Origin: Gordius albopunctatus
Lineage: Eukaryota
Length of the DNA: 64,000 nucleotides
Assembly: GCA_964276515.1 (NCBI GenBank)
Contig: OZ193909.1
Location: forward strand, 14,508,001-14,572,000
Direction of reading: 5' to 3'
The notes under the pieces are model-generated. The model searched no databases, was not told the DNA's origin, and was given only the letters and a program-made list of their open reading frames with translations. Below, piece by piece: positions 13,506-58,990 of this stretch (within the stretch, counting starts at the first letter, position 1; each line of letters begins with the position of its first letter). The position numbers and the translations under genes were made by a program.

Positions 13506-14536
13506 TCCAAAAGCGCCTGGATTGCGGTCTGTTGTGGACGTGGACCAAAGATTTTCGTTGCAGCGGGGTCGAAGGGAATGACGTGGTTGCCATGCTCAGC
13601 GAAGCCATTAAACACGAGGGCCTCGAGATCAAAATAGTGGCCATCTTGAACGATTCAACCGGAACCCTGGTTGCTGGCACCCACAAAGATCCCGATTGTT
13701 GCTTGTCTGTAATCATAGGTCCGGGTAGCAACGCGGCCTACTTTGAGAAGATTGAAAATATCGGAATCTGGGAAGGATCTCGGCACCAGCACGAACATTA
13801 CTCGATCATCGATACGGAATGGGGCGCGTTTGGGGATAACGGAGTCATTGAATTTTTGAAAACGCCATTTGACAAAGAAATTGACGCCAACTCCAAGCAC
13901 CCCGGATCCTTTTCGTTTGAAAAATTGTTTAGCGGCTTGTACCTGGGTGAACTAACTCGGGTCATTTTGTGTCACGCGCATCTGGAAGGCCTTTTTCTCC
14001 ACAAGTTGGACGACTGCCCCAAGCAGGGTGACCGCGTTAAGGCTAAACCGGTGTTGATCATCGCCAAAGACGCGTTTCCCACCAAATTCGTTTCAGCCAT
14101 CGAAGAAGAGTATGCCGTGGGGCGCGATGCAAAATTGATGGAAATATTGAAGCAATTGGGACTGGCGGAATACGCGGAAACCGAGGATCGACGCTTTATC
14201 CAAGATTTGTGCGCCGTGCTAATATCGCGGGCGGCTAAATTGGTTGCCGCTTCAATTGCCACAATCCTCAAACGAATGAGTGATAGGCCTCGCTGCGCCG
14301 TAGCCATTGATGGTTCGATGTATAAATTAGTTCCGCGCATCGATCAGCAAATTAAGCATTGGATCGCGGTCCTCTTGCAAGCTAAAACCGAGGTGAAAAT
14401 ATTCCTGTCTGAAGATGGTAGCGGAACGGGGGCGGCCCTTGTAGCAGCGATAGCCGAGCGCATGGCTAGATGCAAGAATGGAGCGGCAGAGCAGAGGATA
14501 GCCATGACTGGATCAACTTCATCATCATCGCCCTAA
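13506..14536 (+). pseudogene. HK: Hexokinase retrocopy (intronless, 5'-truncated; open frame of ~340 codons)
   Basis: WTKDF, VAILNDSTGTL, IIGPGSNAAY, DTEWGAFGD, FEKLFSGLYLGE, AIDGSMY, SEDGSGTGAA; the N-terminal DLGGT phosphate-1 motif is missing; fused to gypsy sequence at 13505. Confidence 0.92.
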
Positions 14537-15038
14537 CAGCTCTCTCTCCGTATTACTACTACTTTATGTACCCATTGTACCCAAATAACAACAATCCACA
14601 AACCCTTTTTTATACCCATCATTTACATGAGTTGGGAAGTCTGTACATAATTGTTTTGACAATTGAGGCGTGTCGACAGACAGACACTATATATTTTTTT
14701 ATGTACACATTTACATCTATTATAAATATATTATGGATACTAGTCAGTTAAGTTGAATACTTACATTGGTATCATCGCTCTAAGTGTAGGGCATATTTAA
14801 TGTTTTGTTTTGGGGCGAAATGAAGATATAATTGATTTTCGGCGTATACTTGATGTGGCAGGACCATACATGTTACACACAATTACACACACACACAAAC
14901 CCTTTTTTGGATTCTCGACATTAATTTTCCACTTGTTAATGTGGTACGTTTATTCGCACAACATGATTCGTAATTTGTGAAACGTTAAATTACCATTCTT
15001 CAATAAAGTCTCACAATTAACGATAAAAAAAAAAAAAA
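14537..15038 (+). other. Hexokinase 3' UTR with poly(A) signal and genomically encoded poly(A) tail
   Basis: AATAAA 15002-15007 followed after 17 nt by A14 at 15025-15038. Confidence 0.85.
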
Positions 15039-15181
15039 TCCGAAGGGTTGGTTATGCCATTCCCTTCGGATCCCCTGGCTACGCTTTTACGTTTCACCAG
15101 GGGGTGTTTTATTAACGCGTTATCATCCTTATGTAAAAAATTATAATCGTCGTTGCGCGTAAATGTGTATGTGTGAACGAA
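15039..15181 (-). ncRNA. Structured 3' tail of element A (three stems, AATAAA)
   Basis: Stems 15038-15047/15062-15071, 15072-15078/15097-15103, 15115-15119/15156-15160; minus-strand AATAAA 15108-15113. Confidence 0.7.
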
Positions 15182-15258
15182 AAATTTTGGGGAGAATAAG
15201 GGAAAATATAAAGTGGCAGAGAGGGCAATAGCGTATAACACGTGGAACAGAAAAAATG
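15182..15258 (-). repeat. 3' copy of element A direct repeat (identical to 17982-18058)
   Basis: 77-bp exact match at offset 2800. Confidence 0.95.
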
Positions 15259-15262
15259 GAGC

Positions 15263-15296
15263 GAATGACGGTGTGTTTTTCTTTCTTGTTTATATA
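15263..15296 (-). promoter_or_regulatory. TATA box + Inr of element A
   Basis: TATATAAA 15296-15289; TCATTC 15268-15263 with the A 30 nt downstream of the TATA start. Confidence 0.7.
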
Positions 15297-15311
15297 GTCT
15301 TGGTCACGTGT

Positions 15312-17204
15312 TTACCGAGGGATTTCGCATCTGTTTTCCTCGCTGCTTTCCTCGAAATTTTCGTTCTCCCAAAACCCTAAGTCGATCTGTTCGTCTAGTT
15401 CGTCCGGTTGAATCTCTGGTATCTCGAAGCCTTGTGGCGGGATGTTGGAGGTGCTGTTGGGTACCGAGTATCTTTCTGGTGGCATCCAAGTTCTAGATGG
15501 TAGGTCGGCCGGATTGTTGTTTGTCGAGGTCCACCTTATGTTATAATGGAGTTTGAGGAGGTGAGATACGTCGTATGTGGCTACGAAGTTTGCAATGATC
15601 GATTCCAGGATAGGTGAGTTTGACCCTCCTTTGAGTAAGACGAAATAGGCTGTGGTGGAGTCAGTAACAATCTTTGGATAGTTTGCCCCATTGTGGATGG
15701 CGTGGAGGTATGCGTAAATGGCAGCGATCGTTTCTGTGGCTGTGATGTGACCACCAATCGTCCATTCCAATCCTATTGCTCGTGCCGCATCTTTAAACGT
15801 GATGGAAAAGTTTTGTCCTTCCCAGGAGATACCTATGTGTTCGTCGGAGGCATCGGCATATATCGTGGTGTCATGTTCCCTGTGTAGAGGTATGATTTGT
15901 TTGAGGATCTCTAGACATCCCTGTAATTTGGCTTGGGCTGCCGGCCTGTCATGGCTTGTGACGTTGTTGTTAGCGGCCATTGCGTAGAAGGTGCTGAACA
16001 ATCTCGGCATTCCGGTGAGATTGTAGTAGAAGTAATTCAGCACCCCTAGGGCTTCCATTAACGTGTAATCCGTTATTGGTGTCGGCGTTGATAAGAAGAG
16101 GTGAAGTATGTCCGCTGCGTACTTCAATCGTGTTTGTGTGCTCGTGGATACTTTGATCGAGTGTGTGCGAAAGTCGAGTATTAACCCCAGGTATTCGATG
16201 GTGTTTGTTGCCCATACTGACGATTTGCTGGTGTTGATGGTGAGGCCCCAGTCTTTGGCCATTTCTGCGATGTTTCCTAGGTCCTCTGTGACGTGATCTT
16301 CGTCCTCTGCAAAGATCAGGATGTCATCAAGGTATACATTGTAGTTGCAATGTTTTACTGCCTTTTTAACCAGATCTGCGACTACTGTTTGGAGTACGAA
16401 GGGCGATAAAGAGGCCTCCATTGGCAGGACCTCATAGTGATATAGTTTTTCTCGCCACTTGTAGCCGCAGTATCGCTTGGCGTTTTTATGTAAGGGTATG
16501 CTGAAGAAAGCGGCTTTCAAGTCTATTTTTGCCGCGTAATTGGCTTTTGCCAACTTTTTTGCTGTGAGGGGGATGGTAGCCAACTTGACTGGTAGATGCT
16601 TAAAATTCTTTGAAGCCTCTGACAAGTCGGTGATCACGCGGGCATCCCTATTTTGTTTAGCTATAAAGAAGGTTGCGGAGGTGATGGCGAGCGACTGAGT
16701 CTCGGATACAACCCCCGCTTCTTTCATAGTGGTGAAATAGACTGGGCTTCCCTTTGAGATGCCTTTACGCCTTTCTGGTCTGAACAGACCGTTATTCCTC
16801 CTAATTTTAGGGAGGTCAAGTGGCGGTTTGAAGCCTTCAAATGCTACTTTCAGCGTGAAGGGCGACATTAGAGGATGCGGCTTTAGCCTTGAAGTTTTAA
16901 TGTCGAGAGGCCCTTTGGGCTTGTTAGCTATGCTTTGTTTTCCCCATAAGAAGACGGCTTTATGCCTGTCCACAAGTTCCGGGATGTGTCCCGAACCGGC
17001 GTCCCCGCCGAGGGATTCGTCATCGGGGTTAGTGCGATTGCTAACGTCGGTGGGTATCTTTGGATACTCTCTTGGCGGTAATGGAGGGGGCTGCGCTGGC
17101 CCGTCGGAATTATCATCATCTGCCGGATGCGCTGGGGAAAAGATTTGGCGGCGGGTCTCCTTTAAGAAGTTTTTAATTTGTTGCCACCACCTAGGAAAGC
17201 CCAA
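15312..17204 (-). CDS. Element A polymerase: RT + RNase H (frame open upstream to 17387; likely reached by +1 frameshift)
   Basis: FFIAK..ARVITDLS, AAKIDLKAAFFSIPLH, VLPMEASLSPFVLQ (G>E change), YLDD, IEYLG; RNase H YADAS..E..TDS..NPADLPSR; track start is TTG. Confidence 0.93.
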   Translation of the reverse strand: MGFPRWWQQIKNFLKETRRQIFSPAHPADDDNSDGPAQPPPLPPREYPKIPTDVSNRTNPDDESLGGDAGSGHIPELVDRHKAVFLWGKQSIANKPKGPLDIKTSRLKPHPLMSPFTLKVAFEGFKPPLDLPKIRRNNGLFRPERRKGISKGSPVYFTTMKEAGVVSETQSLAITSATFFIAKQNRDARVITDLSEASKNFKHLPVKLATIPLTAKKLAKANYAAKIDLKAAFFSIPLHKNAKRYCGYKWREKLYHYEVLPMEASLSPFVLQTVVADLVKKAVKHCNYNVYLDDILIFAEDEDHVTEDLGNIAEMAKDWGLTINTSKSSVWATNTIEYLGLILDFRTHSIKVSTSTQTRLKYAADILHLFLSTPTPITDYTLMEALGVLNYFYYNLTGMPRLFSTFYAMAANNNVTSHDRPAAQAKLQGCLEILKQIIPLHREHDTTIYADASDEHIGISWEGQNFSITFKDAARAIGLEWTIGGHITATETIAAIYAYLHAIHNGANYPKIVTDSTTAYFVLLKGGSNSPILESIIANFVATYDVSHLLKLHYNIRWTSTNNNPADLPSRTWMPPERYSVPNSTSNIPPQGFEIPEIQPDELDEQIDLGFWENENFEESSEENRCEIPR

Positions 17205-17277
17205 GTCTTTATCCCCGTTGAGAGTCGGTTCGCCCGAGGGCCCGTACTCCCACCGGCTGACGGTGTTGCGTATTAAT

Positions 17278-17958
17278 TTACGAACGCGGGGCAGGGGCCG
17301 CGTTCTTCTGGAAGTGTCGGCTCGGCTTTTTGCCTCTGCCCCTGCCAGCTCCTGGAAAAAACGACTTTCGTGGCGACTTGGGTATCGTTATTTCTACATC
17401 CTTGAATCCCATGTCCGTAAGCCATGTCGTGTCGTGCTTGGCTGCGGTTGCCCAATTGAATTTTATGGCCAGGCACAATGTTTTTAATTGCTTATCGTGT
17501 GCCACCAATATTTCCAGGGGGGATGTTGGTAGACACACTTGAGACATCATTATGGCGTATTTTGCTTCGTGTCTGTCTCTTTTTTGAACACGCTGGTCTG
17601 GGTCTCTAAGTAGTTCCTCAAGGCCTTGTGTGTGTTTTGCGATCTCCTCGCATAAGAACGCCGGGGTCTTAGGTGGGTCTGGCGCTGGTATGATTTGGAC
17701 CGTGGATGGCATTTGAATCGGCGCTATATTTGCTGGCTCTAGCTGCCTGTGACTAGGGCCCACCACAGACATCGATGCCGCTAGCATTTCCCTTAGGCTA
17801 TCGATCTGGCGTTGATTCGCTCTGTTCTGTTCCCTCTGCATCTCCACCAGTTTAGATCTTAGGTCCGCCGAGCCCGCACCGGGAACCCCCGGTCTAACAG
17901 GGCTCGGGGGATTGCTAATATCCTCTTGGCCGTCCTCCGTGCTTCTTGTTCTAGGCAT
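17278..17958 (-). CDS. Element A ORF1, Gag/core-like, 226 aa
   Basis: ATG start, intact; clear homology with B ORF1 (PAP.PP.T, GLEEL..DPD, HEAK.AI, QLK..CLAIKFNW.TAA, FFP.AGRG); basic/Gly-rich tail. Confidence 0.85.
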   Translation of the reverse strand: MPRTRSTEDGQEDISNPPSPVRPGVPGAGSADLRSKLVEMQREQNRANQRQIDSLREMLAASMSVVGPSHRQLEPANIAPIQMPSTVQIIPAPDPPKTPAFLCEEIAKHTQGLEELLRDPDQRVQKRDRHEAKYAIMMSQVCLPTSPLEILVAHDKQLKTLCLAIKFNWATAAKHDTTWLTDMGFKDVEITIPKSPRKSFFPGAGRGRGKKPSRHFQKNAAPAPRS

Positions 17959-17981
17959 GTACGGGGGGAAAAAGGCGAAGG

Positions 17982-18058
17982 AAATTTTGGGGAGAATAAG
18001 GGAAAATATAAAGTGGCAGAGAGGGCAATAGCGTATAACACGTGGAACAGAAAAAATG
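17982..18058 (-). repeat. 5' copy of element A direct repeat
   Basis: Exact match to 15182-15258; starts 8 nt downstream of the predicted TSS equivalent. Confidence 0.95.
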
Positions 18059-37470: not shown

Positions 37471-40089
37471 AGAATTCAGTCATATATACTAGGTTTCCCA
37501 AAATTTGCAAGAACAAATTAAGATGGAATGAAAGATATGCCATATTATTAGTAAAAGGTAAAAGTGTTTGGTAAGTTTTAAAACCTGATAACTTTGAACT
37601 GTCAAAATGAACTGCGTTAGCTTTTTTATGTTAACAGTTTGTTATTAACAATTCTTAATTTTATATAATTTATAATTGTAAACAATACGCCGATAAAAAG
37701 TATCTTATGTTTATATGCCCATTTTGTCATTAAAGTACATGAGCGTAGCCAGGAAGATGGCAGAAGGGGCGAGAATGCCTATGGGGGGGGGGGTAATGGT
37801 TAAGCAGGGAGTCAGATAATACTCGTACAACGTTATAGTTTATTTTAAATATACTATTTGAATATTAATAATTTAAGTATTAATAAATGTTTTATAGCAA
37901 TTTTTACAAAAATTTAGCCTTTTTAATATTTGTATTGAAAAAACTAAGTCATCTGTTTGCATTTTACACTTGATTTTGAGGAATAGGCGAAATGGCGAAT
38001 GGAACGCAAATAAAGAGTATGACCTTGAAAAAACCAATAGTCATCCTTCCAAAACGTACAACTTTTAATTAAGAGTTTATTTGATACTCTATAAATTTAA
38101 ACAATTTGGTGTAAGGGACATAATTTAAATTATGAATATAGACTCTATTCAAAATCATACGCGTATGTACAGTATAAAAAACAACAAAGGAAAAATGAAA
38201 TAGTAACATTTTATCTAATCTAGCGAGTAAATGAATGGATTATGGTGCGAATTTTAGTTACGACAGTGAAATGAAGGTAAAAAATTTGCACTATATTCAG
38301 GGTTAGGTTGGTGGATAGCGGTTTTATTATCAAAAAGGGACGGGGCAAACCAATCTGGGAAACGATAAATATAAAGAACCTTTTAAGGGGTGTGGGGTGC
38401 GGTGAGACGTCGGAAAGAAATTATATAAGGTCAAAAAATAGAATAAAAAATTTCGATATACACTTTGGCCAGTGATTTTTTCCATTGGTCAGCAGGTCAA
38501 AAAGCGTGTAAATACATAAGGATCAATTATTAACAAAACTGAAAAAATTTCCAATTCTTGGCTTCTGTTACGTTTGTTGTTTGGTTTGGGGCTATATTTC
38601 CAAAGGGTTTTAGCTGCTAGCTCGAGTCTTTAGTCGTAAAGGCTCGTTCTTGTGATTAGGTTTGCGGGATTTATTAGTCTGCTGTTAGGTTGACAATAGG
38701 CTTACTCAAGGATTTATTTCATTTATATCTGAATTGACAATAAGCACATTCAAGAATTTTTTTGGTGTTATATCAGTCGACAATAGGCAAATTCTAGGAT
38801 TTTATTCAATCTTTATAGTCAATATATGTCACGAAATGTTTCAGCGGGAAAAGTCTTTCCGGTAATTCAAGGTGCTTGAGTGGCGGTTCAAAAGGTTATA
38901 GGGGATACAGTGATACAGCTCCACGGATAAAAGTTTTGGGGTAATCAGATTATTAAGACGGCGCGGGAAAAATAGCAAGGAAAAATAATTAATGAATTTT
39001 AACGGGATACATGGGTTTTTTAATGACAGGGTTCCTTAACCTCCTGAGGTCGTTGCTCTATTTGCTTATTTTCTATTATCCCTACCTATCCTAAAAAGGA
39101 ATAGCTATTAAATTAACCCCGGCCTTATTTTCAACTCATCCAAACTTACTTCCTAGCCCATTAATCTTAATGTTAATAAACTTACGCATTCCCATCTTAC
39201 ATACCGCTATACTAAACTATTCATCCAACTTATTTTCAAGTACGTTGATCTTAATGGTCAACACAAGTGGAAAATTTCCAACCTTAACTTAGCCCATTAA
39301 TCTTAATAGTTACCCCAACTAGAACATTCCCATCTTTTAATCTTGACAGCTACCCCACCTAGAACATTCCCCTCTTTAAATACATTGGTAATAAATAATT
39401 AAAGGATGCCTTATTCAATCCTTTGTATACGAACATTCCCAACTTTTAATACACCTGTGATAACTTATTAGGGTGGGCCCCCTTAACTCCTGAGGATACA
39501 ACAGGCCAGTGCTTATTTCTTCCATTGATCAGCAGACGGCCAAATAGATAGCCTATACTTATAATATAGAAAAAAAATCGATTTTAATCTCACTTTGGCC
39601 AGTGGTCATATTTTCAAATGGTCAACAGACGGCTAAATAGCTAGCCAATATAACATGATTTATGATTAGTGTAAAAATAGTTTACCATGTTTTTAATATA
39701 ACGCTTTTATGAGTATTAAACAAAAAAATGAAATATGTTTAAAATATTTTTATCCTAGCTGATTTATGCTCAATATATATTCGTTAATATTAAATTGAAT
39801 CCTGTTTCCATGCTAAGAGGTTTTATAGTGATTAATATTATGTTACCTGAACATGTTTTAACCAGCCTCTTAGTTATTGCTGGAGTAGTTGAAGTTCCCA
39901 AAATCTTTTGTTCGTTAAATAATTGTATAATGAATTATAACTATTTATTAATGATAAAACAACTAAGACATAATTTTACATAAGTACAATGATGGGGTTT
40001 TATTACATTTTGATCAAAAATTATTAATAAAATAAATGAAGAAAGGCATATGTTAAAAAATCGTATATTGTAAATATCCCAAATTGAAA

Positions 40090-40963
40090 TTATTCGTTAT
40101 TACAATAACTAACAAAACTTTGTGTGTCATTAAATGAAGGCTTTCTTAAAGAAAGACTGTTAAAAGCTGCCAAACTTAAAGAACTTCTCGCTTCGTATTC
40201 TGGATGGTCATAATTAGGCTTAAAATAAAATTTGATTTCACTTTCATCTTTGGACGCATTAGATCGACTTTTCCACAATTCTAATATTAATGCGGAAGAC
40301 ACATTTGGTGTATCATCCAGCGTTATATTATAAAAATTTAGTAGATGAATAATTTGATAATCGTGAGCAACGTAAATAACTAAATTTTTAGTCCTTCGGT
40401 TAAAACTGTTATTAAATTTTAATTTAATATCTTCAACTAAATTATATAATAAGTCATCAAGCATGCGACTCTTGTTTGAGAAGTAATTGTAGTAAGACAA
40501 CATTAAGTGAGCCAAATTCGTGTAAATAGTTTTATTGGCCTACGCAGGCAAACCCATTCCATTTTCGTTCAAGGTTTTTAGCACTTCAAATATCCTGGCA
40601 GGCAATCGATCGTCTATGATACCTTCGCTCGTATAATTTTTTAGCGAAAGTAAGAAAGCCGTTTGGTTTATCAATAAATTATTGTATTCACTATTATTCG
40701 ATCGAGAAATATGTTGCATACCTTGACTCAGCTTTTTACAATTTTTAAGGCTGCCCATTAAAAAGCAGGACTCTAACAAAGTTGTCCTATTATTAGGAAT
40801 TTTGACTGACCACTCATAAGGTAGAGTTTTGTTTATAGCCAAAATATCCATATTCTCCTGAGTTAAAGAATATTTAGGATCATTGTTGCTGATTCCTATT
40901 AAGATGGCCAACATGCTCGTAATAGTTCTATCTGAGTTTGTGGATAACAAATGAGTATTAAAA
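40090..40963 (-). pseudogene. Acid phosphatase partial copy (lacks RHG exon region, internal stop)
   Basis: TGG>TAG at 40540; 5' end replaced at the tandem junction. Confidence 0.85.
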
Positions 40964-41304
40964 TTTATCCTAGCTGATTTATGCTCAATATCTATTCGTT
41001 AATATTAAATTGAATCCTGTTTCCATGCTAAGAGGTTTTATAGTGATTAATATTATGTTACCTGAACATGTTTTAACCAGCCTCTTAGTTATTGCTGGAG
41101 TAGTTGAAGTTCCCAAAATCTTTTGTTCGTTAAATAATTGTATAATGAATTATAACTATTTATTAATGATAAAACAACTAAGACATAATTTTACATAAGT
41201 ACAATGATGGGGTTTTATTACATTTTGATCAAAAATAATTAATAAAATAAATGAAGAAAGGCATATGTTAAAAAATCATATATCGTAAATATCCCAAATC
41301 GAAA

Positions 41305-42178
41305 TTATTCGTTATTACAATAACTAACAAAACTTTGTGTGTCATTAAATGAAGGCTTTCTTAAAGAAAGACAGTTAAAAGCTGCCAAACTTAAAGAACT
41401 TCTCGCTTCGTATTCTGGATGGTCATAATTAGGCTTAAAATAAAATTTGATTTCACTTTCATCTTTGGACGCATTAGATCGACTTTTCCACAATTCTAAT
41501 ATTAATGCGGAAGACACATTTGGTGTATCATCCAGCGTTATATTATAAAAATTTAGTAGATGAATAATTTGATAATCGTGAGCAACGTAAATAACTAAAT
41601 TTTTAGTCCTTCGGTTAAAACTGTTATTAAATTTTAATTTAATATCTTCAACTAAATTATATAATAAGTCATCAAGCATGCGACTCTTGTTTGAGATGTA
41701 ATTGTAGTAAGACAACATTAAGTGAGCCAAATTCGTGTAAATAGTTTTATTGGCCCACGCAGGCAAACCCATTCCATTTTCGTTCAAGGTTTTTAGCACT
41801 TCAAATATCCTGGCAGGCAATCGATCGTCTATGATACCTTCGCTCGTATAATTTTTTAGCGAAAGTAAGAAAGCCGTTTGGTTTATCAATAAATTATTGT
41901 ATTCACTATTATTCGATCGAGAAATATGTTGCATACCTTGACTCAGCTTTTTACAATTTTTAAGGCTGCCCATTAAAAAGCAGGACTCTAACAAAGTTGT
42001 CATATTATTAGGAATTTTGACTGACCACTCATAAGGTAGAGTTTTGTTTATAGCCAAAATATCCATATTCTCCTGAGTTAAAGAATATTTAGGATCATTG
42101 TTGCTGATTCCTATTAAGATGGCCAACATGCTCGTAATAGTTCTATCTGAGTTTGTGGATAACAAATGAGTATTAAAA
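41305..42178 (-). pseudogene. Acid phosphatase partial copy (lacks catalytic N-terminus)
   Basis: 1215-bp tandem duplicate of the preceding copy; open for 286 aa but without RHGxR. Confidence 0.85.
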
Positions 42179-42231
42179 TTTATCCTAGCTGATTTATGCT
42201 CAATATCTATTCGTTAATATTAAATTGAATC

Positions 42232-42402
42232 TCCAGGACCGGGTTAGGCCCGATCCCGGATTCCCCTAGGTACGGTCTCGTAAGAGGCTTTCGCTAGGGG
42301 CCTTTTATTCACGCGAATCGACGCATTAAATTATCGTAATATGAGCCGGCGGTAACAATTCGCGTACATGAATAATCAAGAAAAAGTTGTGTTTAGAAAA
42401 CG
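42232..42402 (-). ncRNA. Structured 3' tail of element B
   Basis: Hairpin 42232-42260 (two G-U pairs on the minus strand), stems 42263-42269/42294-42300 and 42311-42318/42358-42365; minus-strand AATAAA 42304-42309. Confidence 0.72.
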
Positions 42403-42511
42403 AAATTTTGGAGAATAGGCTTGGGGACAAAGCGGGCGAAACAGGTGAGGAGGGTGTCACGTAGGAAAAACAAGCGAGTGATACCCGGAGGGCAGACGGG
42501 GGTATTTATAC
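42403..42511 (-). repeat. 3' copy of element B direct repeat, containing TATA + Inr
   Basis: TATAAATA 42510-42503; TCACTC 42481-42476 (A 31 nt downstream of the TATA start); exact match to 45195-45303. Confidence 0.93.
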
Positions 42512-42530
42512 CTGGATGCATAGGGTTTAG

Positions 42531-44378
42531 TTAGGGTTCTAAATCGACTATTTCGACCCCTATTTCGTTTTCCCAAAAGTCTAGATCGATGTCGTTTGCC
42601 TCGGGAAGACCTTGTTTGAGAACGTAATCGATATCGGTGTTGGTTTGTTCCTTATCTGGTGCGTCGGGGGCCCATACCCGGGATGGGTAGTCGGCCGGGT
42701 TTAAATGGGTTGGGATCCAAGAGAGGTTAAAGTGGATGTTTAGTAGGTGTTTAATCCCCCAGGTTTTTACGAAGGTAGCTATGACTTCCTCGATCACTGG
42801 GGAGTTGGACCCCCCTTTTTTCAGTACGTAGTATGCCGTGGCGGAGTCCGTATACAATTTCGGGTGATCATGCCCACTAAGGTAAGATCGAACGTACCCA
42901 TACAGGACCGCTACGGTTTCCGACAGTGTTATATGGTATGGCTCTCTCCATTGCCAACCCAAGAAGGCTGCTGCATTCTGAAAGCTGTTTGAGTGCTGGC
43001 CGTAATCGTCGGAGACCCCGATATGCGTGCCGGATGCGTCGACGTAGACGACGTTGGTAGGCCTTACCCAGAGTGGTATGGTTTCGTGTGTGAGCTTTAA
43101 GATACCCATGAGCTTGTGCGCGGCGAGGCTTCTATCGAACCACGGGGGGGTTCCTTGCGTGAGGCTGTAAAAGCTAGAGAAAAGTTTGGACATGCCCGTA
43201 AGGTTATAAAAGAAATAATTAAGGATGCCCAATGCTTCGAGTAGCGTGTTTGTGGGGACATCTCGTGAGAGGGCTAGGAAGAGGATGTCGGCCGCGATTT
43301 GAAGCCGGTCAGCTGTTCCTGGTTTGCATTTAATTGCCGAAACATCGAGTTTGAGTTCCATGCCGAGGTACTCGATGTGTTGTGAAGGCATGATGGAGGA
43401 TTTGCTGACGTTGATCGTAAGGCCCCATGCTTTGGCTAGGTCGGCTAGGTCTTCGAGGTCATTCTGGACGTTGTCGTAATCGGGAGAGTAAATTAGGAGG
43501 TCGTCCAGGTATACGTTGTATTTAGACCGTTTTACTGCCTTTTTAGCGAGGTCGCTAACCACCATTTGTAACACGAACGGGGAGAAGGATGCTCCCATGG
43601 GCAACACATTGTATTCGAAGGGCTTTCTCTTCCAGACGTACCCCAGGTATTTCTTGGTGCTGGGGTGGATGGGAATCGAGAAGAATGCGGCCTTGAAATC
43701 TATTTTGGCCGCCCATCTGGCGTCTGCTATGTGTTTGGCGGTAAGTGGGATGTTCGCTAGCTTCAGGGGTTTCGGCAGAAAGTTTCTAGAAGCAAAAGAC
43801 AAATCGGTTATTACCCTTGCATCCCCGTTCGGTTTGGCGATGAAGAAAGTGGCGGATCGGATGAGGAGTTTCGCAGTCCTTGATACAATCCCTGCGTTAA
43901 GCATTTCCGCGAAGTAGGCCGGAGGTCCTTTTGAGTACCTCTTCGATTTGGGGGGCTGTATCAATCCCCCGTTCAACCGGATGTTGTATGCATCCAGGAT
44001 GGCCTTGTAGCCAAAGGTGGCTACCTTCCTGCTAAATGGCGACATTAGGTCGTGCGGTGTGAGGCGTGAAGTTCGGATGTCGAGCTTTCCGCTTGGCTTA
44101 GCAGTAGTTGACGCCCTGCTCCAGCCGAAAAGCACTTTGTGTGCTTGTATCAGCGATCGGATTTGACCCGATCCTGTGTCCCGGACGAGGGACGGTTCGG
44201 CGTCCTTGAGTCGTTGTTCCGACTCAGCGGGAGATGGCGGAGCGTCGTTTGGTGGCGGTGGTGTCGACGGCGGAGTGTCCGGCAGCTTCGGATCGTCGTC
44301 ATTAGGTGGCGAGAAGATGATGCGTCGCGTTTCCCTAAGAAAATGAAAAACATTTTTAAGCCACGTGGGGGAAACCAT
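42531..44378 (-). CDS. Element B polymerase: RT + RNase H (frame open upstream to 44579)
   Basis: WAAKIDFKAAFFSIPIHP, VLPMGASFSPFVLQ, YLDD, IEYLG; YVDAS..SE..YTDS..WIPTHLNPADYPSR. Confidence 0.95.
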   Translation of the reverse strand: MVSPTWLKNVFHFLRETRRIIFSPPNDDDPKLPDTPPSTPPPPNDAPPSPAESEQRLKDAEPSLVRDTGSGQIRSLIQAHKVLFGWSRASTTAKPSGKLDIRTSRLTPHDLMSPFSRKVATFGYKAILDAYNIRLNGGLIQPPKSKRYSKGPPAYFAEMLNAGIVSRTAKLLIRSATFFIAKPNGDARVITDLSFASRNFLPKPLKLANIPLTAKHIADARWAAKIDFKAAFFSIPIHPSTKKYLGYVWKRKPFEYNVLPMGASFSPFVLQMVVSDLAKKAVKRSKYNVYLDDLLIYSPDYDNVQNDLEDLADLAKAWGLTINVSKSSIMPSQHIEYLGMELKLDVSAIKCKPGTADRLQIAADILFLALSRDVPTNTLLEALGILNYFFYNLTGMSKLFSSFYSLTQGTPPWFDRSLAAHKLMGILKLTHETIPLWVRPTNVVYVDASGTHIGVSDDYGQHSNSFQNAAAFLGWQWREPYHITLSETVAVLYGYVRSYLSGHDHPKLYTDSATAYYVLKKGGSNSPVIEEVIATFVKTWGIKHLLNIHFNLSWIPTHLNPADYPSRVWAPDAPDKEQTNTDIDYVLKQGLPEANDIDLDFWENEIGVEIVDLEP

Positions 44379-44454
44379 ATCTTTATCGCCATTGGGAGTC
44401 GGTAAGCCATCGGGCCCGAGTTCCCAGTTCGTTGCTGCTTTCTGAAGGCGCTTT

Positions 44455-45183
44455 CTAATTCCTGGCAGGGGCCGCGCCCTTTTTGACGTTGCGGCCCTTA
44501 GGTGCGCCTCCGCCCCTGCCAGCTCTCGGAAAAAACTGCCTTCTCTGGGCGTCTTTTTTGACGTCGACGTCGGGCATTCTCATCTCCTTGAGCCAGGCCG
44601 AGTCTTGGGAGGCGGCGGTCTGCCAGTTAAATTTTATAGCCAGACACATCTTTTTAAGTTGGTCGTCTATAGGAATTAGTTCCTCCAGGGTCATCGGGAT
44701 CCTGGTGAGTTTAGCGCAGTGTATTGCGAATTTAGCCTCGTGCTTATCTCTTTTTGCTGCTTTATTATCCGGGTCCAGGATTAGTTCCTCCAGACCGCGT
44801 CGGTGTAGATTGATATCGTCCAATACCGATTCGACGGTGCGCGGAGGTTCGGGCGCCGGCATTATTTGAAGCGTTGAAGGTGCCCCTTGCTGCACGTTGG
44901 GCGGCATGGTGGGGGTAGAAGCCACGGGTATCGGGCCCAGTGTTGTTCGCTGGAGGAGCTGCTGCAGCGCCTCCGTCTGGACCCTTTGCGCCTCCGCTTG
45001 TCTTGTTAGGGCGTTCACGGCCGTTTCCTGCATGGCGGCTATTCTAGCCAATAACCCCTCAACCGCGTTGTCAGAGCCCATTCCGGACCTTAAGGTCGTG
45101 TTAGTAGGTGGCGAAGTCATAGACGTTTCCGGCGTAATCAAGAAAAAACTATTATGCTGGTCTTGAGACCTCGTGTTAACCAT
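44455..45183 (-). CDS. Element B ORF1, Gag/core-like, 242 aa
   Basis: ATG 12 nt after the 5' repeat; homologous to A ORF1. Confidence 0.85.
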   Translation of the reverse strand: MVNTRSQDQHNSFFLITPETSMTSPPTNTTLRSGMGSDNAVEGLLARIAAMQETAVNALTRQAEAQRVQTEALQQLLQRTTLGPIPVASTPTMPPNVQQGAPSTLQIMPAPEPPRTVESVLDDINLHRRGLEELILDPDNKAAKRDKHEAKFAIHCAKLTRIPMTLEELIPIDDQLKKMCLAIKFNWQTAASQDSAWLKEMRMPDVDVKKDAQRRQFFPRAGRGGGAPKGRNVKKGAAPARN

Positions 45184-45194
45184 TCACTACTAAA

Positions 45195-45303
45195 AAATTT
45201 TGGAGAATAGGCTTGGGGACAAAGCGGGCGAAACAGGTGAGGAGGGTGTCACGTAGGAAAAACAAGCGAGTGATACCCGGAGGGCAGACGGGGGTATTTA
45301 TAC
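45195..45303 (-). repeat. 5' copy of element B direct repeat; element begins at the TATA box
   Basis: Minus strand begins GTATAAATA at 45303; host sequence resumes at 45304 (equivalent to 21937). Confidence 0.93.
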
Positions 45304-47444: not shown

Positions 47445-49221
47445 GTTTGTGCGACCAGTGGGTGTGGTTTTTGATTATTGGTTATGAAGTGGCTCATGAT
47501 GATTATCGCTGCGTCAATTTTTCTAAGGAACTTGGCGTTGATAGAAAGTTAATGCTGGGCTAGGTTGAGAGCATTCGTTGTGGTGTGGTTTCAGATTTCT
47601 GGGTATTAATAGATAGATTCCATTTGTTTGCTAGTTTTAGGAAATTCCTCGTGTTTTGTTGTACCAGGGCAGCTATTTTGGCATATATTAGGATGTCATC
47701 CAGATATACATTGTATCGACAGGTAGTGATGGATTTAATGCACAAGTCCAACATAATTTGTTGTTGTACAAATGGGGAAAAAGATGCTCCCATAGGCAGC
47801 ACCCTGTATGAGTATTTCGTTCGTCCTGATTTAAAACCGAACAGGTGTGAAATTGATAGGTCTAATTGGATAGAGAAGAAAGCGCTCTTCATGTCAATAT
47901 TTCATGCGTAGTTGGCCTCCGCTAAAGGTTTAGCAATTAATGGGATAGATTTTAGCAAAAAGGGGTATGACGCGAAGTTTTTTGAAATGATGGATAGGTC
48001 TGCGATCATTCTGGGGGACCCATCAGATGGATGCGATCGCGAGACGCTTCCTTCGTACAATGTAGGAATCGATGATTTGGAGTACTAGGTGCCGATTGAC
48101 TCTAGGAATAGGTCGAACATACCGGGGGACAAGGTACTGCCAGTTGTTGTTCGCAAGGGTTCTACTATTGAACCGAGGTTCAAAGCCCCGTCTAGCAACA
48201 TTATAAGTAAACTTGGATTGTGTATGATGTGGCCTGAGCAATGTGGTATTGAGGTCCAATGGTGATGAAAATGGAGTCTTGTTCCCATTGCTTATGTCCC
48301 GAAAGACCGGGAAATAGGGGATGTTAGAAGGTTCATGGATGGTGGGGATCGATTCACTATCGAGTCCGATATCATGTAGGGGTTATTAATATATTCCGCC
48401 ATATCTTAGTGGGTCGGTAGCAGCGTGAAAGGGGTCTTTAGTGGAGGGGCCCCTTCGTCCGGACCATCATCGAGTGAAACAGAATTGATAGCGATGCTCC
48501 GGGCTATACGAATTTAATTGTCTAGCCATATTGGAGCAGTCCGTCTCCAACAATGCTCGGCGGATTATCACCACAGCCGAGGGCCGCCCCTGCCGCCCTT
48601 ACGTATTTCTGTTAAAAGGCGCCTTCCTTGGCATAGGCTTTTCATAGTTCGGCCGAAAAGAGCTAATCTGTTCACTCATCTGTCCGAACCCATTTTTCAC
48701 AGCCCAGTCTTTGGTACGTCCGGTGACTACCTGCCATCCGTAATATGTTGCCATTGCGATGGTTTTAACCCGTTCGGCGAACATTTCGGTAGCTTTGACC
48801 GGATCGTTCCATACTTCACCTAATTCCAGAAGGAAATCGATTTCATGTTTCGGATATAAGGGTACTGCTTTGTTCTTTTTATCAGCCTCCTTCAAACCTT
48901 TAAGTCGTTGCTTTAGTAGTTCAGGTCCTATTTGTACCACGCCGAGACTCTTTTCTTAACCTCACGGGCTATGATTTGGTTTAGCTCTTCAGGAGTGAAG
49001 GACATCGTGTGGGGTTAATAATTGTGGAGATTATCCGGTTTTGTCGAGGCGGGTGTAAATTAACCTTTATTTTTGTCTTTAGCGTTGTCTTACGTGTCTG
49101 AACGCCCAACTTACCCATAATTTTCATTTATTATATTTCCGCGTTTATAATTTGCGTTTCTAAAATAAAATAAAGTGGAGATGGCGAAATATTTTGCGTA
49201 ACCATCCCCAGGGAGCACCTC
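47445..49221 (-). mobile_element. Lineage C RT element, copy 3 (decayed)
   Basis: Same RT motifs with additional deletions. Confidence 0.85.
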
Positions 49222-52200
49222 TTTATTTTGCTCTCACTTTTTTAATTAAATCCAAAACATGTGTATCTAGTAACATTTTTGAGATCCAATGTTTGTAGAG
49301 GTTGAGAAACGTGAGCATTATCAATACATCGGATATATTTTAAAATTAGCTTACTAGTAACATTGTTGATGTCCAAAAAAATATTCATAGAAATTCATAG
49401 ACATTTTGTCAGTTAAATTTTTGTCGAATGAACGGTTACCAAATAGACTGCTCATTGAGCATGCATACATATGAAAAAGTGATGCCTGTTTTACCACCAT
49501 CTTCAACTTATGTAGGTAAGTTTCCATTTTATTCTTTGATATGTTATAAATTTGATAGATGGAGTCATTAATGCAAAATGTTACCTTAGAAAATGACATA
49601 TGTAGGGACATCAACATACGTAACGTCAATCAAGTACGATGTCAATTCCGAGAAATAAGTTAATCACAGATTTGAATTTATTTTCCTAGAAGATCGCACG
49701 CTATGACGTCGATTGACAGATCTTCCTTGAAACTTATCGGTATATTTAGATCTTCTCAGAAGATCATAGATATATTTAAGTCTTCCCAGAAAATAATCGA
49801 TCTTCATGGAAACTCATCGATTAATTTAGATCTTCCAAGAATATTATCGATTTTCCAATAATAATGATTATGTATTTTATAATAACTATATAAACTCAAT
49901 TTTTACGCAAATATAACCAGTCGAATAATTCTAGCAAGATGAATTGTATTCTTTGTTCCAAAATTATCCTTGTATAAGAGTATACAAGCAAGAAACGTAT
50001 TATATCAAAAGACATTTTTTTCTTTCCAATGATATTCTAATAAATGTGAGATTATTTTTTATTTGATATTTAAGTTATCCCAACAAAGATATTTTTACTT
50101 CAATCATAGAAATAGACTATGTTGATTTTAGTGAATTCATCATCATCAAAGGGTATTTGAGAATGAGCAATCAGCCACTGCTCCATTTTTCAAATTCTCG
50201 TCTCGTCTCGGGAGCGATTATAAAAATCTCGATCTCGTCTTGACGAGAATTCTCGCCTCGTCTCGACTTTTAAAAACAAATATATACTGAAAATATTTAA
50301 AATATTTAAAAAATGTTTAAAATACAAATGACAATTTTTTATATTTTTTAAGAAACTTTAATACACAAACTTTTCAAAGATTTAGCGGGACACGACATCT
50401 CATTGACAATATAAAGATATAAATTAATTCATAAAGATAACATTTTCTATGGAAAGTGCAGAATAAAAGACTATAAATAAATTTGAAGTATATAAAATTA
50501 AATGTGAATGTTCTAGCAAATTATAACATTTGTATCAAATTCACTTTTTTGTCAACTATAAATAGACTTAATAATACGTTTGCTTATAGTTGACTTAGTT
50601 GCATAATTGAGCAAATTGAGACCCTTTGTTAACCCTGGGTAAAGCTTCTTAATTGACTAAGTCTATTGTTATCATCATCAATTATATACCATAGTGTTTA
50701 TTGCATGTTTACTATATCGTTATAAACCATAGAGTGCGAGTGACTTTTAATGATAATATTATTATTTACAGAATTAATAACTAGATGCACATATCAAAAC
50801 GTTGTAAAAACAACAATAAAAGCAGCATTATTATAGGATTAAGATAAGGTTTTAAACTGTAAATTGCACGTATTTAAATTTATGACAGAAATCATTATAA
50901 TCAAATTTATATTCCAAATAATTACCTTCCAATTCCAACTAACTTTGCCATTAAATATTTATTGATGGAAAACAGTATAGGTTCGTGTATTTATTTTATA
51001 TTTCACAATTATGGAAATATAATAAATGCACCTGCCAACCCAGCGTATAATGTGAAAAGTAATGCATATGACAAATCTATGTATTCACATAATGTCTTAT
51101 TAAAATTCAAAAATTTGGGAGGTATACTATTAGTTGAAGCATAAAAACTTTAAAAAAATCCATGATTTAGATTTAATCTATTACGGCATCATTAAATACT
51201 CTATTGTACTTTTGAAATCGTTAGGCGGGTGCTAAAAAATCTAGACCTACTTATTCAAACTGATTCACTACCAATTTATAATTAACGCATTATGCAGGAT
51301 GAGTAACTGGAAAATATAAATATGCTTTAGTAATGTTTACTAGTCCATCAGAACTCATTCTAAGCCTAAAATTTGTTTAATATTTAATAGTGCTATGGAT
51401 ACAAATAGGTGATAAAGATATTATAAAATTATTAACATACCCTATGGATCAACCTTACTTAGGTAAATGATTGCCGAATTTTAAATTTTTTGCAAAATAT
51501 ATGATATTTACTACACTTAGTAATTTTTTAAGGATGTTATATAAATGCACAGTAAGAAATTAAAAAATGCGCAGTAAAATATGCACAGTAATATATTTAA
51601 GTGCGCAGTAAATTATTAAAAATTGCACAGTTAATTAATAATAAATTGCTCAATAATTAAACAAAATTGCACAGTTAATTAACAATAAATTGCTCAGTAA
51701 TTTAATAAAATTGCTCAATAATTTAGTAAAATTGCTCAGTAATTATATAGCCTTGCAGAGTAATTTTATAATATTTCTCAGTAATTTTGTAGCATTGAGC
51801 ATTGCTCAGTAATTTAATAACATAGCTTATTGCTTAATACTTTGAATTGATAAGTAATTTTTGAGCATTGCTCAGTAATTTAATAATATTTCTCAGTACC
51901 TCAATAATTTAATAAAATTGCTTAATGATTTGAATTGATAAGTCGTTTTTGAGCATTGCTCAGTAATCAGAACACAACTTAGTTTTCAATAGAATGAATT
52001 GGTTGAAAAAATCTATTATTTTAAAAAATGCCTAATAATCTTTACAAATTGTTCAATAATATTTAGATGCTAAATTAAAAAAATATTCAGTTTATAATTC
52101 AATAACTAATAATTAAATTATCATTGATTTTATGTTTTTATATAAAAAATTTAGTTTGTTGATAAAATTGAGCACTTATTTATTTTAGCTAAAATAAATA

Positions 52201-55548: not shown

Positions 55549-57096
55549 AGGCACGTTTGTGCGACAAGTGGGTGTGGTTTTTGATGATTGGTTATGAAGT
55601 GGCTCATGATGATTATAGCTGGGTCAATTTTTCTAACGAACTTGGCGTTGATAGAAAGTTAATGCTGGGCTAGGTTGATGTAGATACCCAAGTAATTGAG
55701 CATTAGTTGTTGTGTGGTTTCACATTTCTGGGTATTAATAGATAGATTCCATTTGTTTGCTAGTTTTAGGAAATTCCTCGTGTTTTGTTGTACCAGGGCA
55801 GCTATTTTGGCATATATTAGGATGTCATCCAGATATACATTGTATCGACAGGTAGTGATGGATTTAATACACAAGTCCAACATAATTTGTTGTAGTACAA
55901 ATGGGGAAAAAGATGCTCCCATAGGCAGCACCCTGTATGAGTATTTCGTTCGTCCTGATTTAAAACCTAACAGGTGTGAAATTGATGGGTCTAATTGGAT
56001 AGCGAAGAAAGCGCTCTTCATGTCAATCTTTCATGCGTAGTTGGCCTCCGCTAAAGGTTTAGCGATTAATGGGATAGATTTTAGCGAAAAGGGGTATGAC
56101 GCGAAGTTTTTTGAAATGATGGATAGGTCTGCGATCATTCTAGGGGACCCATCAGATTTGGGTATAAAATACATGGGGGATGCGATCGCTAGACGATTCC
56201 TTCGTACAATGTAGGAATCGATGATTTGGAGTACTAGGTGCCGATAGACTCTAGGAATAGGTCGAACATACCTGGTGACAAGGTATTGCCAGTTGTTGTT
56301 CGCAAGGGTCCTACTATTGAACTGAGGTTCAAAGCCCTGTCTAGCGACATTATAAGTAAATTTGGATTGTGTATGATGTGGCCTTAGCAATGTGGTATTG
56401 AGGTCCAATGGTGATGAAAATAGAGTCTTGTTCCCATTGCTTATGTCCCAAAAGGCCGGGAAATAGGCGATGTTAGAGGGTTCATGGATGGTGGGGATCG
56501 GTTCACTATCGAGTCCGATATCATGTAGGGAGGTATTAATATATTCCGCCATATCTGTGTGCGTCTGTAGCGGCGTGAAAGGGGTTTTTAGTGGAGGGGC
56601 CCCTTCGTCCGGACCATCATCGAGTGAAACAGAATTGATAGCGATGCTTCGGGCTATACGAATGTTATTGTCTAGCCATATTGGAGCAGTCCGTCCCCCA
56701 TCGATGCTCGGCGGGTTATCACCTAGCCGAGGGCCGCCCCTGCCGCCCTTACGTCTTTCTGTTGAAAGGCGCCTTCCTTGGCATAGGCTTTTCATAATTC
56801 GGCCGAAAAGTGCTAATCTGTTCACTCACCTGTCCGAACCCATTTTTCACAGCCCAGTCTTTGGTACGTCCGGTGACTACTTGCCATCCGTAATATGTTG
56901 CCATTGCGATGATTTTAATTTTAACCCGTTCGGCGAACACTTCGGTAGCTTTGACCTGATCGTCCAATACTTCAACTAATTCCAGAAGGAAATCGATTTC
57001 ATGTTTCGGATATAAGGGTACTGCTTTGTTCTTTTTATCAGCCTCCTTCAAACCTTTAAGTCGTTGCTTTAGTAGTTCAGGTCCTATTTGTTCCAT
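55549..57096 (-). mobile_element. Lineage C RT element, copy 4 (least decayed ORF1/pol overlap)
   Basis: ORFs 55659-56021, 56031-56825, 56749-57096; retains NYLG (RT motif E). Confidence 0.87.
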
Positions 57097-57711
57097 GTGG
57101 AACTAGTAACATTTTTGATGTCCAATGTTTGTAGAGGTTGAGAAACCTGAGCATTATCAATAGATCCATAGTTTGGATAAGCTATTATGAAGATAAGATA
57201 TAATTGTTTATGAATAAATGAACTTACAGTTGGTGGTTGTTGGGATGGAGGAATATGATTTTGCACTTTGATTATTGATTGCTCTCACTTTTTTAATTAA
57301 ATCTAAAACATGTGGATATATTTTAAAATTAGCTTACTAGTACATTGTTGATGTCCAAAAAAATATTCATAGACATTAATAGACATTTTGTCAGTTAAAT
57401 TTTTGTCGAATGAACGGTTACCAAATAGGCTCCTCATTGAGCATGCATACATATGAAAAAAGTGATGCCTGTTTTACCACCATCTTGAAATTATGTAGGT
57501 AAGTTTACATTTTATTCTTTGATATGTTATAAATTTGATAGATGGAGTCATTAATGCAAAATGTTACCTTAGAAAATGACATATGTAGTGACATCAATAT
57601 ACGTAATATCAATCAAGTACGATGTCAATTCCGAGAAATAAGTTAATCACACATTTGAATTTCTTTTCCTAGAAGATCGCACGCTATGACGTCAATTTAC
57701 AGATCTTCCTT

Positions 57712-58866: not shown

Positions 58867-58990
58867 GTATTTCGCTTTTTTGCCATTCAACTTGGTCTGG
58901 TATACAAGCGATATCAATTTTTCCTCTCCTTAAAACGTCAACCAATTCTCTGCCCTTGCTTGTCATTGTACATTTCATGACTCAAATTGG
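58867..58990 (-). mobile_element. N-terminal fragment of an RTE endonuclease
   Basis: Minus strand reads TMTSKGRELVDVLRRGKIDIACI. Confidence 0.6.

Follow-up and report, generated by a model that had tools for sequence, protein, structure and literature searches.

How might a retroelement that carries only a putative structural protein and a reverse transcriptase (RT) with RNase H become integrated into a chromosome? The question is raised by a 3-kb element, here termed element B, within a 64,000-nt stretch of the Gordius albopunctatus genome (assembly GCA_964276515.1, contig OZ193909.1, positions 14,508,001 to 14,572,000 of the forward strand), which we refer to as the window. We find that element B represents a new integrase-less, two-gene retrotransposon lineage that is shared with nematomorph worms and is not an endogenized virus; an affinity of this lineage to the hepadnavirus side of the RT tree is likely. 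With a confidence that only slightly exceeds an even balance, we read element B as an intact copy of a multi-copy family whose two genes are predicted to be expressed as a +1-frameshift fusion and whose complementary DNA (cDNA) probably depends on chromosome breaks for integration, without an enzyme of its own.

Element B is a sharply bounded, discrete insertion on the minus strand (42232-45303, 3,072 nt). Homology of the host flanks to the paralogous copies in the window stops at 42231 and picks up again at 45304, which makes the coordinates given in a preliminary description of this locus exact, and GC content is 0.519 within the element as against 0.303 and 0.276 in the 1-kb flanks. In 5'-to-3' order, the element consists of a 109-nt direct repeat (A1), open reading frame (ORF) 1, ORF2 encoding RT and RNase H, a second copy of the repeat (A2) and a 171-nt tail (Table 1). 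The repeats are identical at 109 of 109 positions, which marks the element as young; a repeat search stretches the pair to 114 nt at 98%. The preliminary description had placed the element between these repeats, and while their 100% identity holds, the second copy is internal, with the 171-nt tail beyond it. The stretch CCTATGCATCCAG sits just before A2, and the same stretch precedes the repeat at head-to-tail junctions of other copies. The last 94 nt fold at -39.6 kcal/mol (z -2.63; 3 of 200 shuffles were equally good).

Together, ORF1 and ORF2 cover 42531-45183, or 2,653 of the 3,072 nt, and because the remainder is taken up by repeats and tail, no further enzyme gene fits, just as had been proposed for an integrase, recombinase, endonuclease or protease. 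Searching the element B proteins against Pfam, we found integrase, tyrosine recombinase (YR), protease, endonuclease, methyltransferase and hepadnaviral polymerase domains to be absent even at E<=10. With both ORFs open, identical repeats and no such domain, the characterization of element B as intact, young and free of an integration enzyme stands. Its terminal architecture, described beforehand as unlike that of known families, likewise found no match among the families that could be compared.

A second element of the same layout, element A, is also present in the window. In a tblastn search of the window with the element B proteins, the RT of element A is recovered at 49.8% identity over 611 aa and its ORF1 at 50.5% over 107 aa, and the two ORF1 proteins are 41% identical in alignment. 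The repeats of both elements share a terminal CTCC(CC)AAAATTT, and hairpin 1 of the tail is common to both, with 7 pairs kept and 1 compensatory change in the RNAalifold consensus. The correspondence of hairpin 2 between the two elements is a putative one, set by hand, since the consensus covers hairpin 1 only. In addition, five degenerate RT stretches in the window belong to a third lineage (C) and show 38-45% identity to the RT of element B by tblastn; this lineage, too, is without a YR in the window. Of the 53 window ORFs of at least 110 aa, we scanned 28 and found no YR, integrase or protease family (ORFs of elements A and B were scanned separately, and the rest were opposite-strand overlaps and duplicate units); the same families were absent from 11 ORFs of the related loci L013-L016. 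Since two families 50% apart share this layout, the two-gene plan is old and predates their split. The YR-less plan is thus ancestral and not that of a recent one-off deletion derivative.

Table 1. Positions, in window coordinates, of the features of elements B and A, the degenerate third lineage and the hexokinase retrocopy
Feature	Position	Strand	Basis or remark
Element B, 5' direct repeat A1, 109 nt	45195..45303	-	host homology restarts at 45304
Element B, TATA-like GTATAAATA at start of A1	45295-45303 (+ strand coordinates)		sequence motif
Element B, ORF1, 242 aa	44455..45183	-	ORF list; predicted nucleic-acid-binding structural (Gag-like) protein
Element B, TTTTTTC, predicted +1 frameshift site	44529..44535	-	start of ORF1/ORF2 overlap; conserved between B and A
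Element B, ORF2 open frame, 682 aa	42531..44579	-	RVT_1 match; 615 aa from ATG at 44378 (42531-44378)
Element B, internal 3' direct repeat A2, 109 nt	42403..42511	-	same 109 nt as A1
Element B, 3' tail, 171 nt	42232..42402	-	AATAAA, then hairpin 1, then hairpin 2
Element B, AATAAA in tail	42304-42309	-	upstream of both hairpins
Element B, hairpin 1 of tail	42263-42300	-	RNA fold
Element B, hairpin 2, perfect 12-bp stem	42232-42260	-	final base of stem is final base of element B
Element A, 3,020 nt	15039..18058	-	same layout as element B
Element A, repeats, 77 nt, 100% identical	A1 17982-18058; A2 15182-15258	-	repeat search
Element A, ORF1	17278-17958	-	ORF list
Element A, ORF2 frame, 691 aa	15312-17387	-	ORF list; overlaps ORF1
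Element A, tail, 143 nt	15039-15181	-	AATAAA and two hairpins; fold z -6.47, 0/200 shuffles as good
Lineage C, degenerate, ORF1-like fragment and RT fragment	55659..57102	-	tblastn, ORF1 alignment
Lineage C, further RT fragments	1761-2447, 24187-24900, 47566-48024	-	tblastn
Lineage C, further RT fragment	60768-61717	+	tblastn
Hexokinase retrocopy, 5'-truncated, intronless	13506..15038	+	Hexokinase_2 9.5e-62; breakpoints 13505/13506, 18053/18054

ORF2 comprises an N-terminal conserved segment, a Pro-rich linker, an RT with the motif YLDD and an RNase H with the end WIPTHLNPADYPSR; its Pfam matches are RVT_1 (1.9e-24) and a weak, sub-threshold RT_RNaseH (0.089), and nothing else. The motifs quoted for it in the preliminary description were all found in the translation, and the hepatitis B virus (HBV) motifs given there for comparison agree with orthohepadnavirus rows in the PMC12691608 supplement and with polymerase (P) ORFs that we fetched. 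The catalytic residues are invariant in an alignment of 19 sequences, i.e. ORF2 and 18 relatives (RT D227 and D292-D293; RNase H D447, E487, D511 and D563). Relative to ORF1, ORF2 lies in the +1 frame; its open frame shares 125 nt with the end of ORF1, and this overlap is protein-conserved in both frames, including the part upstream of the ATG of element B, where element A is without any ATG. Both GTTTTTTCC and the downstream GAGCTGGCAGGGGC are conserved in the overlap between B and A. Because the overlap is conserved in both frames and opens with the conserved GTTTTTTCC, a gag-pol-type fusion of ORF1 and ORF2 by +1 frameshifting is predicted.

Judging from its composition and position, ORF1 probably encodes a nucleic-acid-binding structural protein. 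No family was matched in Pfam or PHROGs. Structure prediction, which the preliminary description had proposed for ORF1, gave an AlphaFold model that is helical with a basic tail and weak overall (mean predicted local distance difference test, pLDDT, 57.7, with helices at pLDDT 70-85). The predicted layout is a disordered N-terminus, a long helix (38-79), a helical domain (117-200) and a disordered, basic, Gly/Arg/Lys-rich C-terminal tail. Foldseek against the PDB returned nothing at E<=0.001 (best E 0.81), and HBV core chains appear in its list only at E 1.2-2.1 with large root-mean-square deviations (11.6 at E 1.2), which we do not count as a match.

Element B is a member of a proliferating, multi-copy genomic family. 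Two public sequencing runs of one organism, X1 and X2, carry 54% and 39% of its sampled words, and contig pieces that align with it at 90-100% identity number 786 in X1 (356 at >=99%, 248 at 95-99% and 182 at 90-95%) and 134 in X2. Summed word depth over element B is several-fold above that of its flanks, which are themselves already repeated; this is not a copy number. Variant sites in ORF2 fall on third codon positions in 34 of the 37 listed cases, as does the sole listed site in ORF1, a tally that covers the listed sites, with 101 more outside the listing. This pattern is as expected for copies that diverged under selection on their proteins. No RNA run is among the listed sequencing runs that contain element B sequence. 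Small shares of the element B words occur in the runs X3 and X4 (0.07 and 0.05). Run X4 is labelled as a different organism and yielded three short pieces (90-138 nt, within 42792-43027), two of them at >=99% to the ORF2 of element B; a related host, contamination or transfer are all possible sources, and the pieces are too little for interpretation.

The same runs contain natural junctions between copies. In both X1 and X2, a 5'-truncated copy that starts at 45149 is joined behind the tail of another copy via AATAATAATAAA. Several head-to-tail junctions consist of a tail, a short A/T-rich linker (TTTATTATTATT, TTTATTATT, TTTATTTATTT or a 3-nt filler), the 8-15 nt that normally precede A2, and then the repeat. 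Because element B begins exactly at its repeat and the junction copies carry these 8-15 nt more, longer 5' ends must exist.

At the insertions of both A and B in the window, no target-site duplication (TSD) is present and host DNA has been replaced. The left flank of element B continues paralog position 41016 (= 20243), and the right flank restarts at paralog position 21937. These flank positions are non-adjacent in the paralog, and 530 bp (21407-21936) that are present in two other copies are missing here. In the unit that harbours element A, correspondence to the paralog is lost after 13505 (= 36013) and restored at 18054 (= 37610); between these points, a 4,548-nt block, composed of element A and a hexokinase retrocopy, stands in place of 1,596 bp of the paralog. 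The retrocopy contains a single AATAAA (15002), followed 17 nt later by an A14 tract (15025-15038) that abuts the terminal hairpin of element A, tail to tail and on opposite strands. At the 5' junction of element A there is an AAAATG microhomology with the target. The GC content of the retrocopy is 0.447, and because its best named relatives are arthropod hexokinases (43-47% identity), there is no sign of a recent foreign origin.

Endonuclease-independent insertion of non-LTR retrotransposons (those without long terminal repeats, LTRs) and integration of hepadnaviral DNA both occur at double-strand breaks. The window insertions resemble these in the missing TSD, host deletions, 5' truncation, microhomology and co-inserted cDNA, and we take their junction features to indicate that both entered at chromosome breaks. 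Two routes, inseparable here, are conceivable, and of these, reverse transcription primed at the break is favoured over end-joining capture by the poly(A) junction and the A-rich linkers. The likeness to endonuclease-independent and hepadnaviral insertion is one of mechanism only; the RT of the window family is of neither LINE nor Penelope type. Unlike LINE and Penelope elements, the family has no endonuclease family match, and the best solved relatives of its RT are the Ty3 RT (4ol8, 3.2e-09) and retroviral RTs. Moreover, the LINE RTs of the window gave no match to the RT of element B at tblastn E<=0.01 and, unlike it, adjoin Exo_endo_phos_2 ORFs.

We hypothesize that transcription starts about 30 nt after a TATA motif inside or just before the repeat; in element A, TATATAAA lies 31-38 nt upstream of the repeat. 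Such a start would give both families an R-like leader measuring 77-78 nt; one copy of the repeat (about 77 nt) would open the RNA, and the other would lie 145-170 nt short of the 3' end. The RT would recognise the 3' hairpins and begin cDNA at the 3' end of the RNA, using an available A-rich 3'-OH or another primer. On this scheme, the predicted RNA start would lie about 8 nt upstream of the point at which the copy of element A begins, and element B and the longer copies would have 32-47 extra nt. Because these extra nt exist only upstream of A2, the growing cDNA would need to jump from the 5' leader to the internal repeat, much as in LTR elements, restoring part of the promoter in some copies. 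The linear cDNA could then be joined to broken chromosomal DNA by host break repair, with microhomology, or enter by reverse transcription primed by an exposed A-rich 3' end at the break.

The relatives of the family were sought with the RT of element B in a HMMER (phmmer) search of 1.84 billion representatives, which yielded 11,894 matches at E<=1e-3. Only three matches reached E<=1e-30, followed by a plateau from 1e-27 to 1e-17, and each of the three is an uncharacterized protein of the horsehair worm (Nematomorpha) Gordionus sp. m RMFG-2023 (XP_065317776.1, XP_065315139.1 and CAK9296138.1; 2e-77, 2e-60 and 2e-35). Like element B, these cover RT and RNase H and stop soon after NPAD..SR; at 34-39% identity they constitute a different family, known as predicted proteins only. 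A word-index protein search with the same RT gave 1 match. The best 150 phmmer matches were listed, and a Pfam scan covered 147 of these plus P0001 (148 proteins in all, the three longest, P0033, P0111 and P0129, being left out). A Dam-type methyltransferase domain follows the RNase H in 12 of the 148 and modest matches to the hepadnaviral PF00336 occur in 8, while an integrase, recombinase or protease domain was found in none.

A quick tree was built from 101 rows, comprising the matches that span RT and RNase H plus labelled ones (P0033, P0111, P0129 and P0087 dropped), and in it the clade of window and Gordionus sequences falls within a 23-row group free of Dam-bearing rows. As references for a rooted test, we took integrase-bearing Ty3-type proteins from a profile search, and hepadnaviruses from IMG/VR through the alignment-derived motif [WY][IV]P[ST]xxNPADxxSR. 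This motif has 11 matches among 2.9 million IMG/VR contigs, 10 of which are hepadnavirus-sized genomes (L002-L011; 3,149-3,377 nt) with polymerase frames that terminate in it, and it appears to be a compact signature common to the window family, its relatives and hepadnavirus polymerases. The 19-sequence alignment held no stretch conserved enough for a locus search. A profile from a 5-sequence alignment confirmed 0 of 22 IMG/VR pattern matches and found 35 loci in metagenomes. The five loci examined, L012-L016 (27-34% RT identity, one sample), represent degraded genomic copies, none of which has repeats like A1/A2; L014 encodes P0005, and the P0005 group is sister to the window clade in quick trees and not in the careful tree described below. 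On L014, a 183-nt inverted repeat (98%) lies across the end of the RT-RNase H frame. On L015, the ORF directly after the element looks by eye like a Tc1/mariner transposase, for which Pfam gave no match.

The careful tree (IQ-TREE, LG+C20+F+G4 PMSF, 440 columns, rooted) contained 64 rows: 2 from the window, 17 of the 23-row group (2 of them Gordionus), 12 Dam-bearing, 21 other, 6 Ty3-type and 6 of the 10 hepadnaviruses. The other matches were excluded, as were near-identical cluster members, the long-branched P0020, and L005, L008, L010 and L011. Window elements A and B form a clade with the Gordionus proteins P0002 and P0003 at 100/100 (ultrafast bootstrap, UFBoot, and SH-like approximate likelihood ratio test, SH-aLRT). 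The hepadnaviruses are united at 100/100, the six integrase-bearing Ty3-type rows form a separate clade at 100/100, and a DIRS-like clade of 30 rows with all 12 Dam-bearing rows inside is recovered at 86/99. A branch at 70/87 splits the Ty3-type rows, P0022/P0054 and the DIRS-like clade from a group of 26 rows, which is made up of the window clade, the rest of the 23-row group, P0034 and the 6 orthohepadnaviruses. The preliminary description had proposed such an RT and RNase H phylogeny; it places the family on the hepadnavirus side and outside the Dam-bearing DIRS clade, at a moderate support of 70/87 and with an approximately unbiased (AU) test p of 0.139 for a joint clade with the DIRS-like rows. 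From these sequences, a position of the family RT-RNase H on the hepadnavirus side is likely but unproven.

Several points weigh against a break-dependent, recombinase-free element with this affinity. The integration mechanism is drawn from two window insertions and short contigs, and later rearrangement in a heavily duplicated region could mimic insertion-linked deletions. Contigs that join a tail to a repeat fit integrated tandems and circles alike. With AATAAA upstream of the hairpins, its use as a polyadenylation signal for the genomic RNA is hard to accommodate, and the promoter and repeat scheme leaves both this order and the outer 5' end unexplained. A YR may be supplied in trans by longer relatives. 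In the tree, nodes within the 26-row group receive weak support (18-82 UFBoot), and forcing the window clade together with the DIRS-like clade costs 12.18 lnL, which the AU test does not reject. The rows include no named HEART, proto-nackednavirus, nackednavirus, avihepadnavirus, Ngaro, VIPER or PAT sequences, and Ngaro and VIPER carry no methyltransferase label of the kind used here to mark DIRS. Finally, the ESM Atlas puts Euglenozoa-rich clusters (0.96) above a hepadnaviral 'Protein P' cluster (0.94, rank 8).

Several of these points bear on the alternative that survives best, although we regard it as unlikely, namely that the family is a derivative of the DIRS order (Ngaro/VIPER/PAT-like) that no longer encodes a tyrosine recombinase and depends in trans on relatives elsewhere in the genome that do encode one, with A1/A2 as the remnant of a split direct repeat. 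The unrejected AU comparison and the Euglenozoa-rich nearest ESM clusters speak for it, as do the Dam-bearing proteins, which score level with the PF00336-bearing ones among the best 150 phmmer matches. Moreover, the family shares with the DIRS order the same broad RT-RNase H class, a Gag-like ORF1, the lack of a DDE integrase and protease, and repeats of which the 3' copy is internal, an arrangement that recalls the split-repeat layout A1...B1-A2-B2 as given in PMC4157794. Unlike DIRS elements, however, the window family has no detectable YR (neither in the scanned window ORFs nor in the related loci), no inverted terminal repeats or internal complementary region, and no B1/B2 pair, nor is there a copy of the tail end upstream of A2 in A or B. 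A split direct repeat had been considered from a weak likeness of the tail end to the 19 nt before A2 in element B, and it was set aside, having no counterpart in A. A Dam-like methyltransferase domain is absent from B, A and the Gordionus proteins in Pfam, and the maximum-likelihood tree places the family outside the Dam-bearing clade. A recent loss also fits poorly with a YR-less layout in two families 50% apart, and with no YR in the degenerate third lineage. Likewise, precise recombination is at odds with junctions that show deletions, microhomology, 5' ends of varying position and fusion to an mRNA retrocopy.

Less probable again, and poorly supported in our judgement, is an endogenized, roughly 3-kb, non-enveloped reverse-transcribing DNA virus of proto-nackednavirus-like kind that integrated by chance, as hepadnaviral linear DNA does. 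Like the Blubervirales, element B is about 3 kb in length (3.07 kb) and combines a structural gene with an RT-RNase H gene, and it has terminal redundancy, an ORF1 modelled as all-helical with a basic C-terminus, and a GC content of 0.52 in host flanks of 0.28-0.30. TSD-free integration with host deletion is also seen for hepadnaviruses. Apart from Gordionus and the P0005 group, the tree neighbours of the family sit on environmental contigs of 1.4-3.6 kb, from metagenome or run assemblies, and the motifs PMG..SPF and NPAD.PSR, though short, are common to the window family and to hepadnavirus rows in part of the PMC12691608 supplement.

Several observations run counter to a viral origin. The preliminary description had likened one stretch to the T3 region; BLASTP of the 682-aa ORF2 against a 919-aa orthohepadnavirus P frame gave two stretches within the RT core (25% identity over 75 aa, 27% over 66 aa) and, at the sequence level, nothing in the terminal-protein region, and the ORFs of A and B matched neither PF00242 at E<=10 nor PF00336. 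No Blubervirales core homologue, DR1/DR2 or epsilon was detected in element B with Pfam, Foldseek, sequence comparison or Rfam, the last giving nothing near threshold on either element and no epsilon at E<=10. Element B is a linear copy that shows no circular permutation, its tail differing from the sequence after A1. PMC11551314 states that hepadna-, nackedna- and proto-nackednaviruses all retain YMDD without exception; B, A and Gordionus instead have YLDD, and YMDD occurs in 0 of the 19 aligned sequences. Unlike Blubervirales, the window family is chromosomal and high in copy number, and the overlap of its ORF2 with ORF1 is of the fusion type, with conservation of the ORF2 frame reaching upstream of the ATG. 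The P0005 relatives are degraded genomic copies, one of them beside the transposase-like ORF. Given hundreds of diverged pieces with third-codon bias, copies that are 5'-truncated or in tandem, the presence of three lineages in 64 kb and this gag-pol-like frame, the endogenized virus that had been suggested is unlikely.

An internally deleted LTR retrotransposon or a chimeric rearrangement product, immobile by itself, is very improbable: the RVT_1-type RT with its Ty3 and retroviral best solved relatives and a window rich in rearranged transposon fragments would fit, whereas LTRs are lacking, a unique 171-nt tail without a counterpart at the 5' end comes after the 3' repeat, no RVP or rve match, protease or integrase remnant (Pfam) or target duplication is present, the ORFs are intact, the repeats identical and the family under a signature of purifying selection, the layout is kept in element A, and the Ty3-type rows form their own clade.

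We return to the reading of an autonomous family that lacks an integration enzyme, for which HEART elements offer a comparison. These are hepadnavirus-like retroelements, reportedly described by Gong and Han in 2018. Like the window family, they are chromosomal retroelements of invertebrates with an RT on the hepadnavirus side, as reported for HEART and as recovered here for the window family, and an integration enzyme is known in neither; in the part of Kojima 2025 consulted (PMC12440569), HEART is called an enigmatic group with a mobilization mechanism that is not resolved. Seven HEART RT rows from Ixodes ticks in the available portion of the PMC12691608 supplement read LPFG(I/L)RPAPF and (Y/H)(I/L)DNFLLAH, with the second catalytic Asp replaced, as against LPMGASFSPF, YNVYLDD and intact catalytic residues in the window family. 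By this comparison, made by eye, the tick HEART RT motifs are clearly different and lend no support to the suggestion that element B is HEART-related. The window-family motif words, 'Gordi-' and 'Nematomorpha' are absent from ten supplementary files of PMC12691608.

The surrounding window (1-64000) is a tandem array of units of 22.4-23.4 kb, in three copies at 97-100% identity, with a partial unit copy at 53.7-58 kb and an inverted partial copy at 60.4-64 kb. Because A and B each occur in one unit only, both were inserted after the duplications. A 1,215-bp tandem repeat with histidine acid phosphatase (His_Phos_2) fragments spans 39749-42231 and 20191-21406, and the unit of element B has one extra 1,215-bp repeat and 51 bp compared with the paralogous unit. 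MULE transposase ORFs with SWIM zinc fingers occur once per unit (6740-7906, 29186-30160 and 52477-53451, minus strand). Other mobile-element remains include fragmented non-LTR retrotransposons (RVT_1 and Exo_endo_phos_2; 8332-10835 and 30777-33299 on the minus strand, 57659-58977 on the plus strand), LTR-element fragments with an aspartyl protease (11898-12308 and 34408-34818) and an RT fragment (35783-36187). Arrays of a repeat of about 21 nt (AATTGCTCAGTAATTT...) lie at 5951-6259, 28397-28705 and 51688-51996, with nine overlapping 64-nt matches per unit.

To our knowledge, hepadnavirus-related retroelements are known only as a few degraded lineages. We found no earlier description of the window family in the literature or in the PMC12691608 supplements, Repbase and Dfam lying outside that search. 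DIRS-type elements went undetected in nematomorph genomes according to the accessible part of a preprint (bioRxiv 10.1101/2024.06.11.598342), and automated transposon annotation overlooks the present family. With young, intact copies whose ends are exactly defined, together with another diverged family and natural junctions, several matters become testable questions, including the roles of the repeat and of the 3' hairpins and the origin of the hepadnavirus polymerase lineage from such elements. That element A is fused to a retrocopy of a host mRNA suggests that new retrogenes can be generated by the element or by the breaks that it exploits. More speculatively, and with doubt prevailing, the family could be a new superfamily of autonomous, integrase-free retrotransposons of ecdysozoan worms and the closest intact cellular relative of hepatitis-B-type viruses, using an RNA with a repeated leader, opportunistic priming and break-reliant integration. 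If this is true, it would offer a living example of the retroelement stage from which the ancestors of hepadnaviruses are proposed to have escaped, and entry through break repair would make element B a rare cellular cousin of the hepatitis-B-type viruses.

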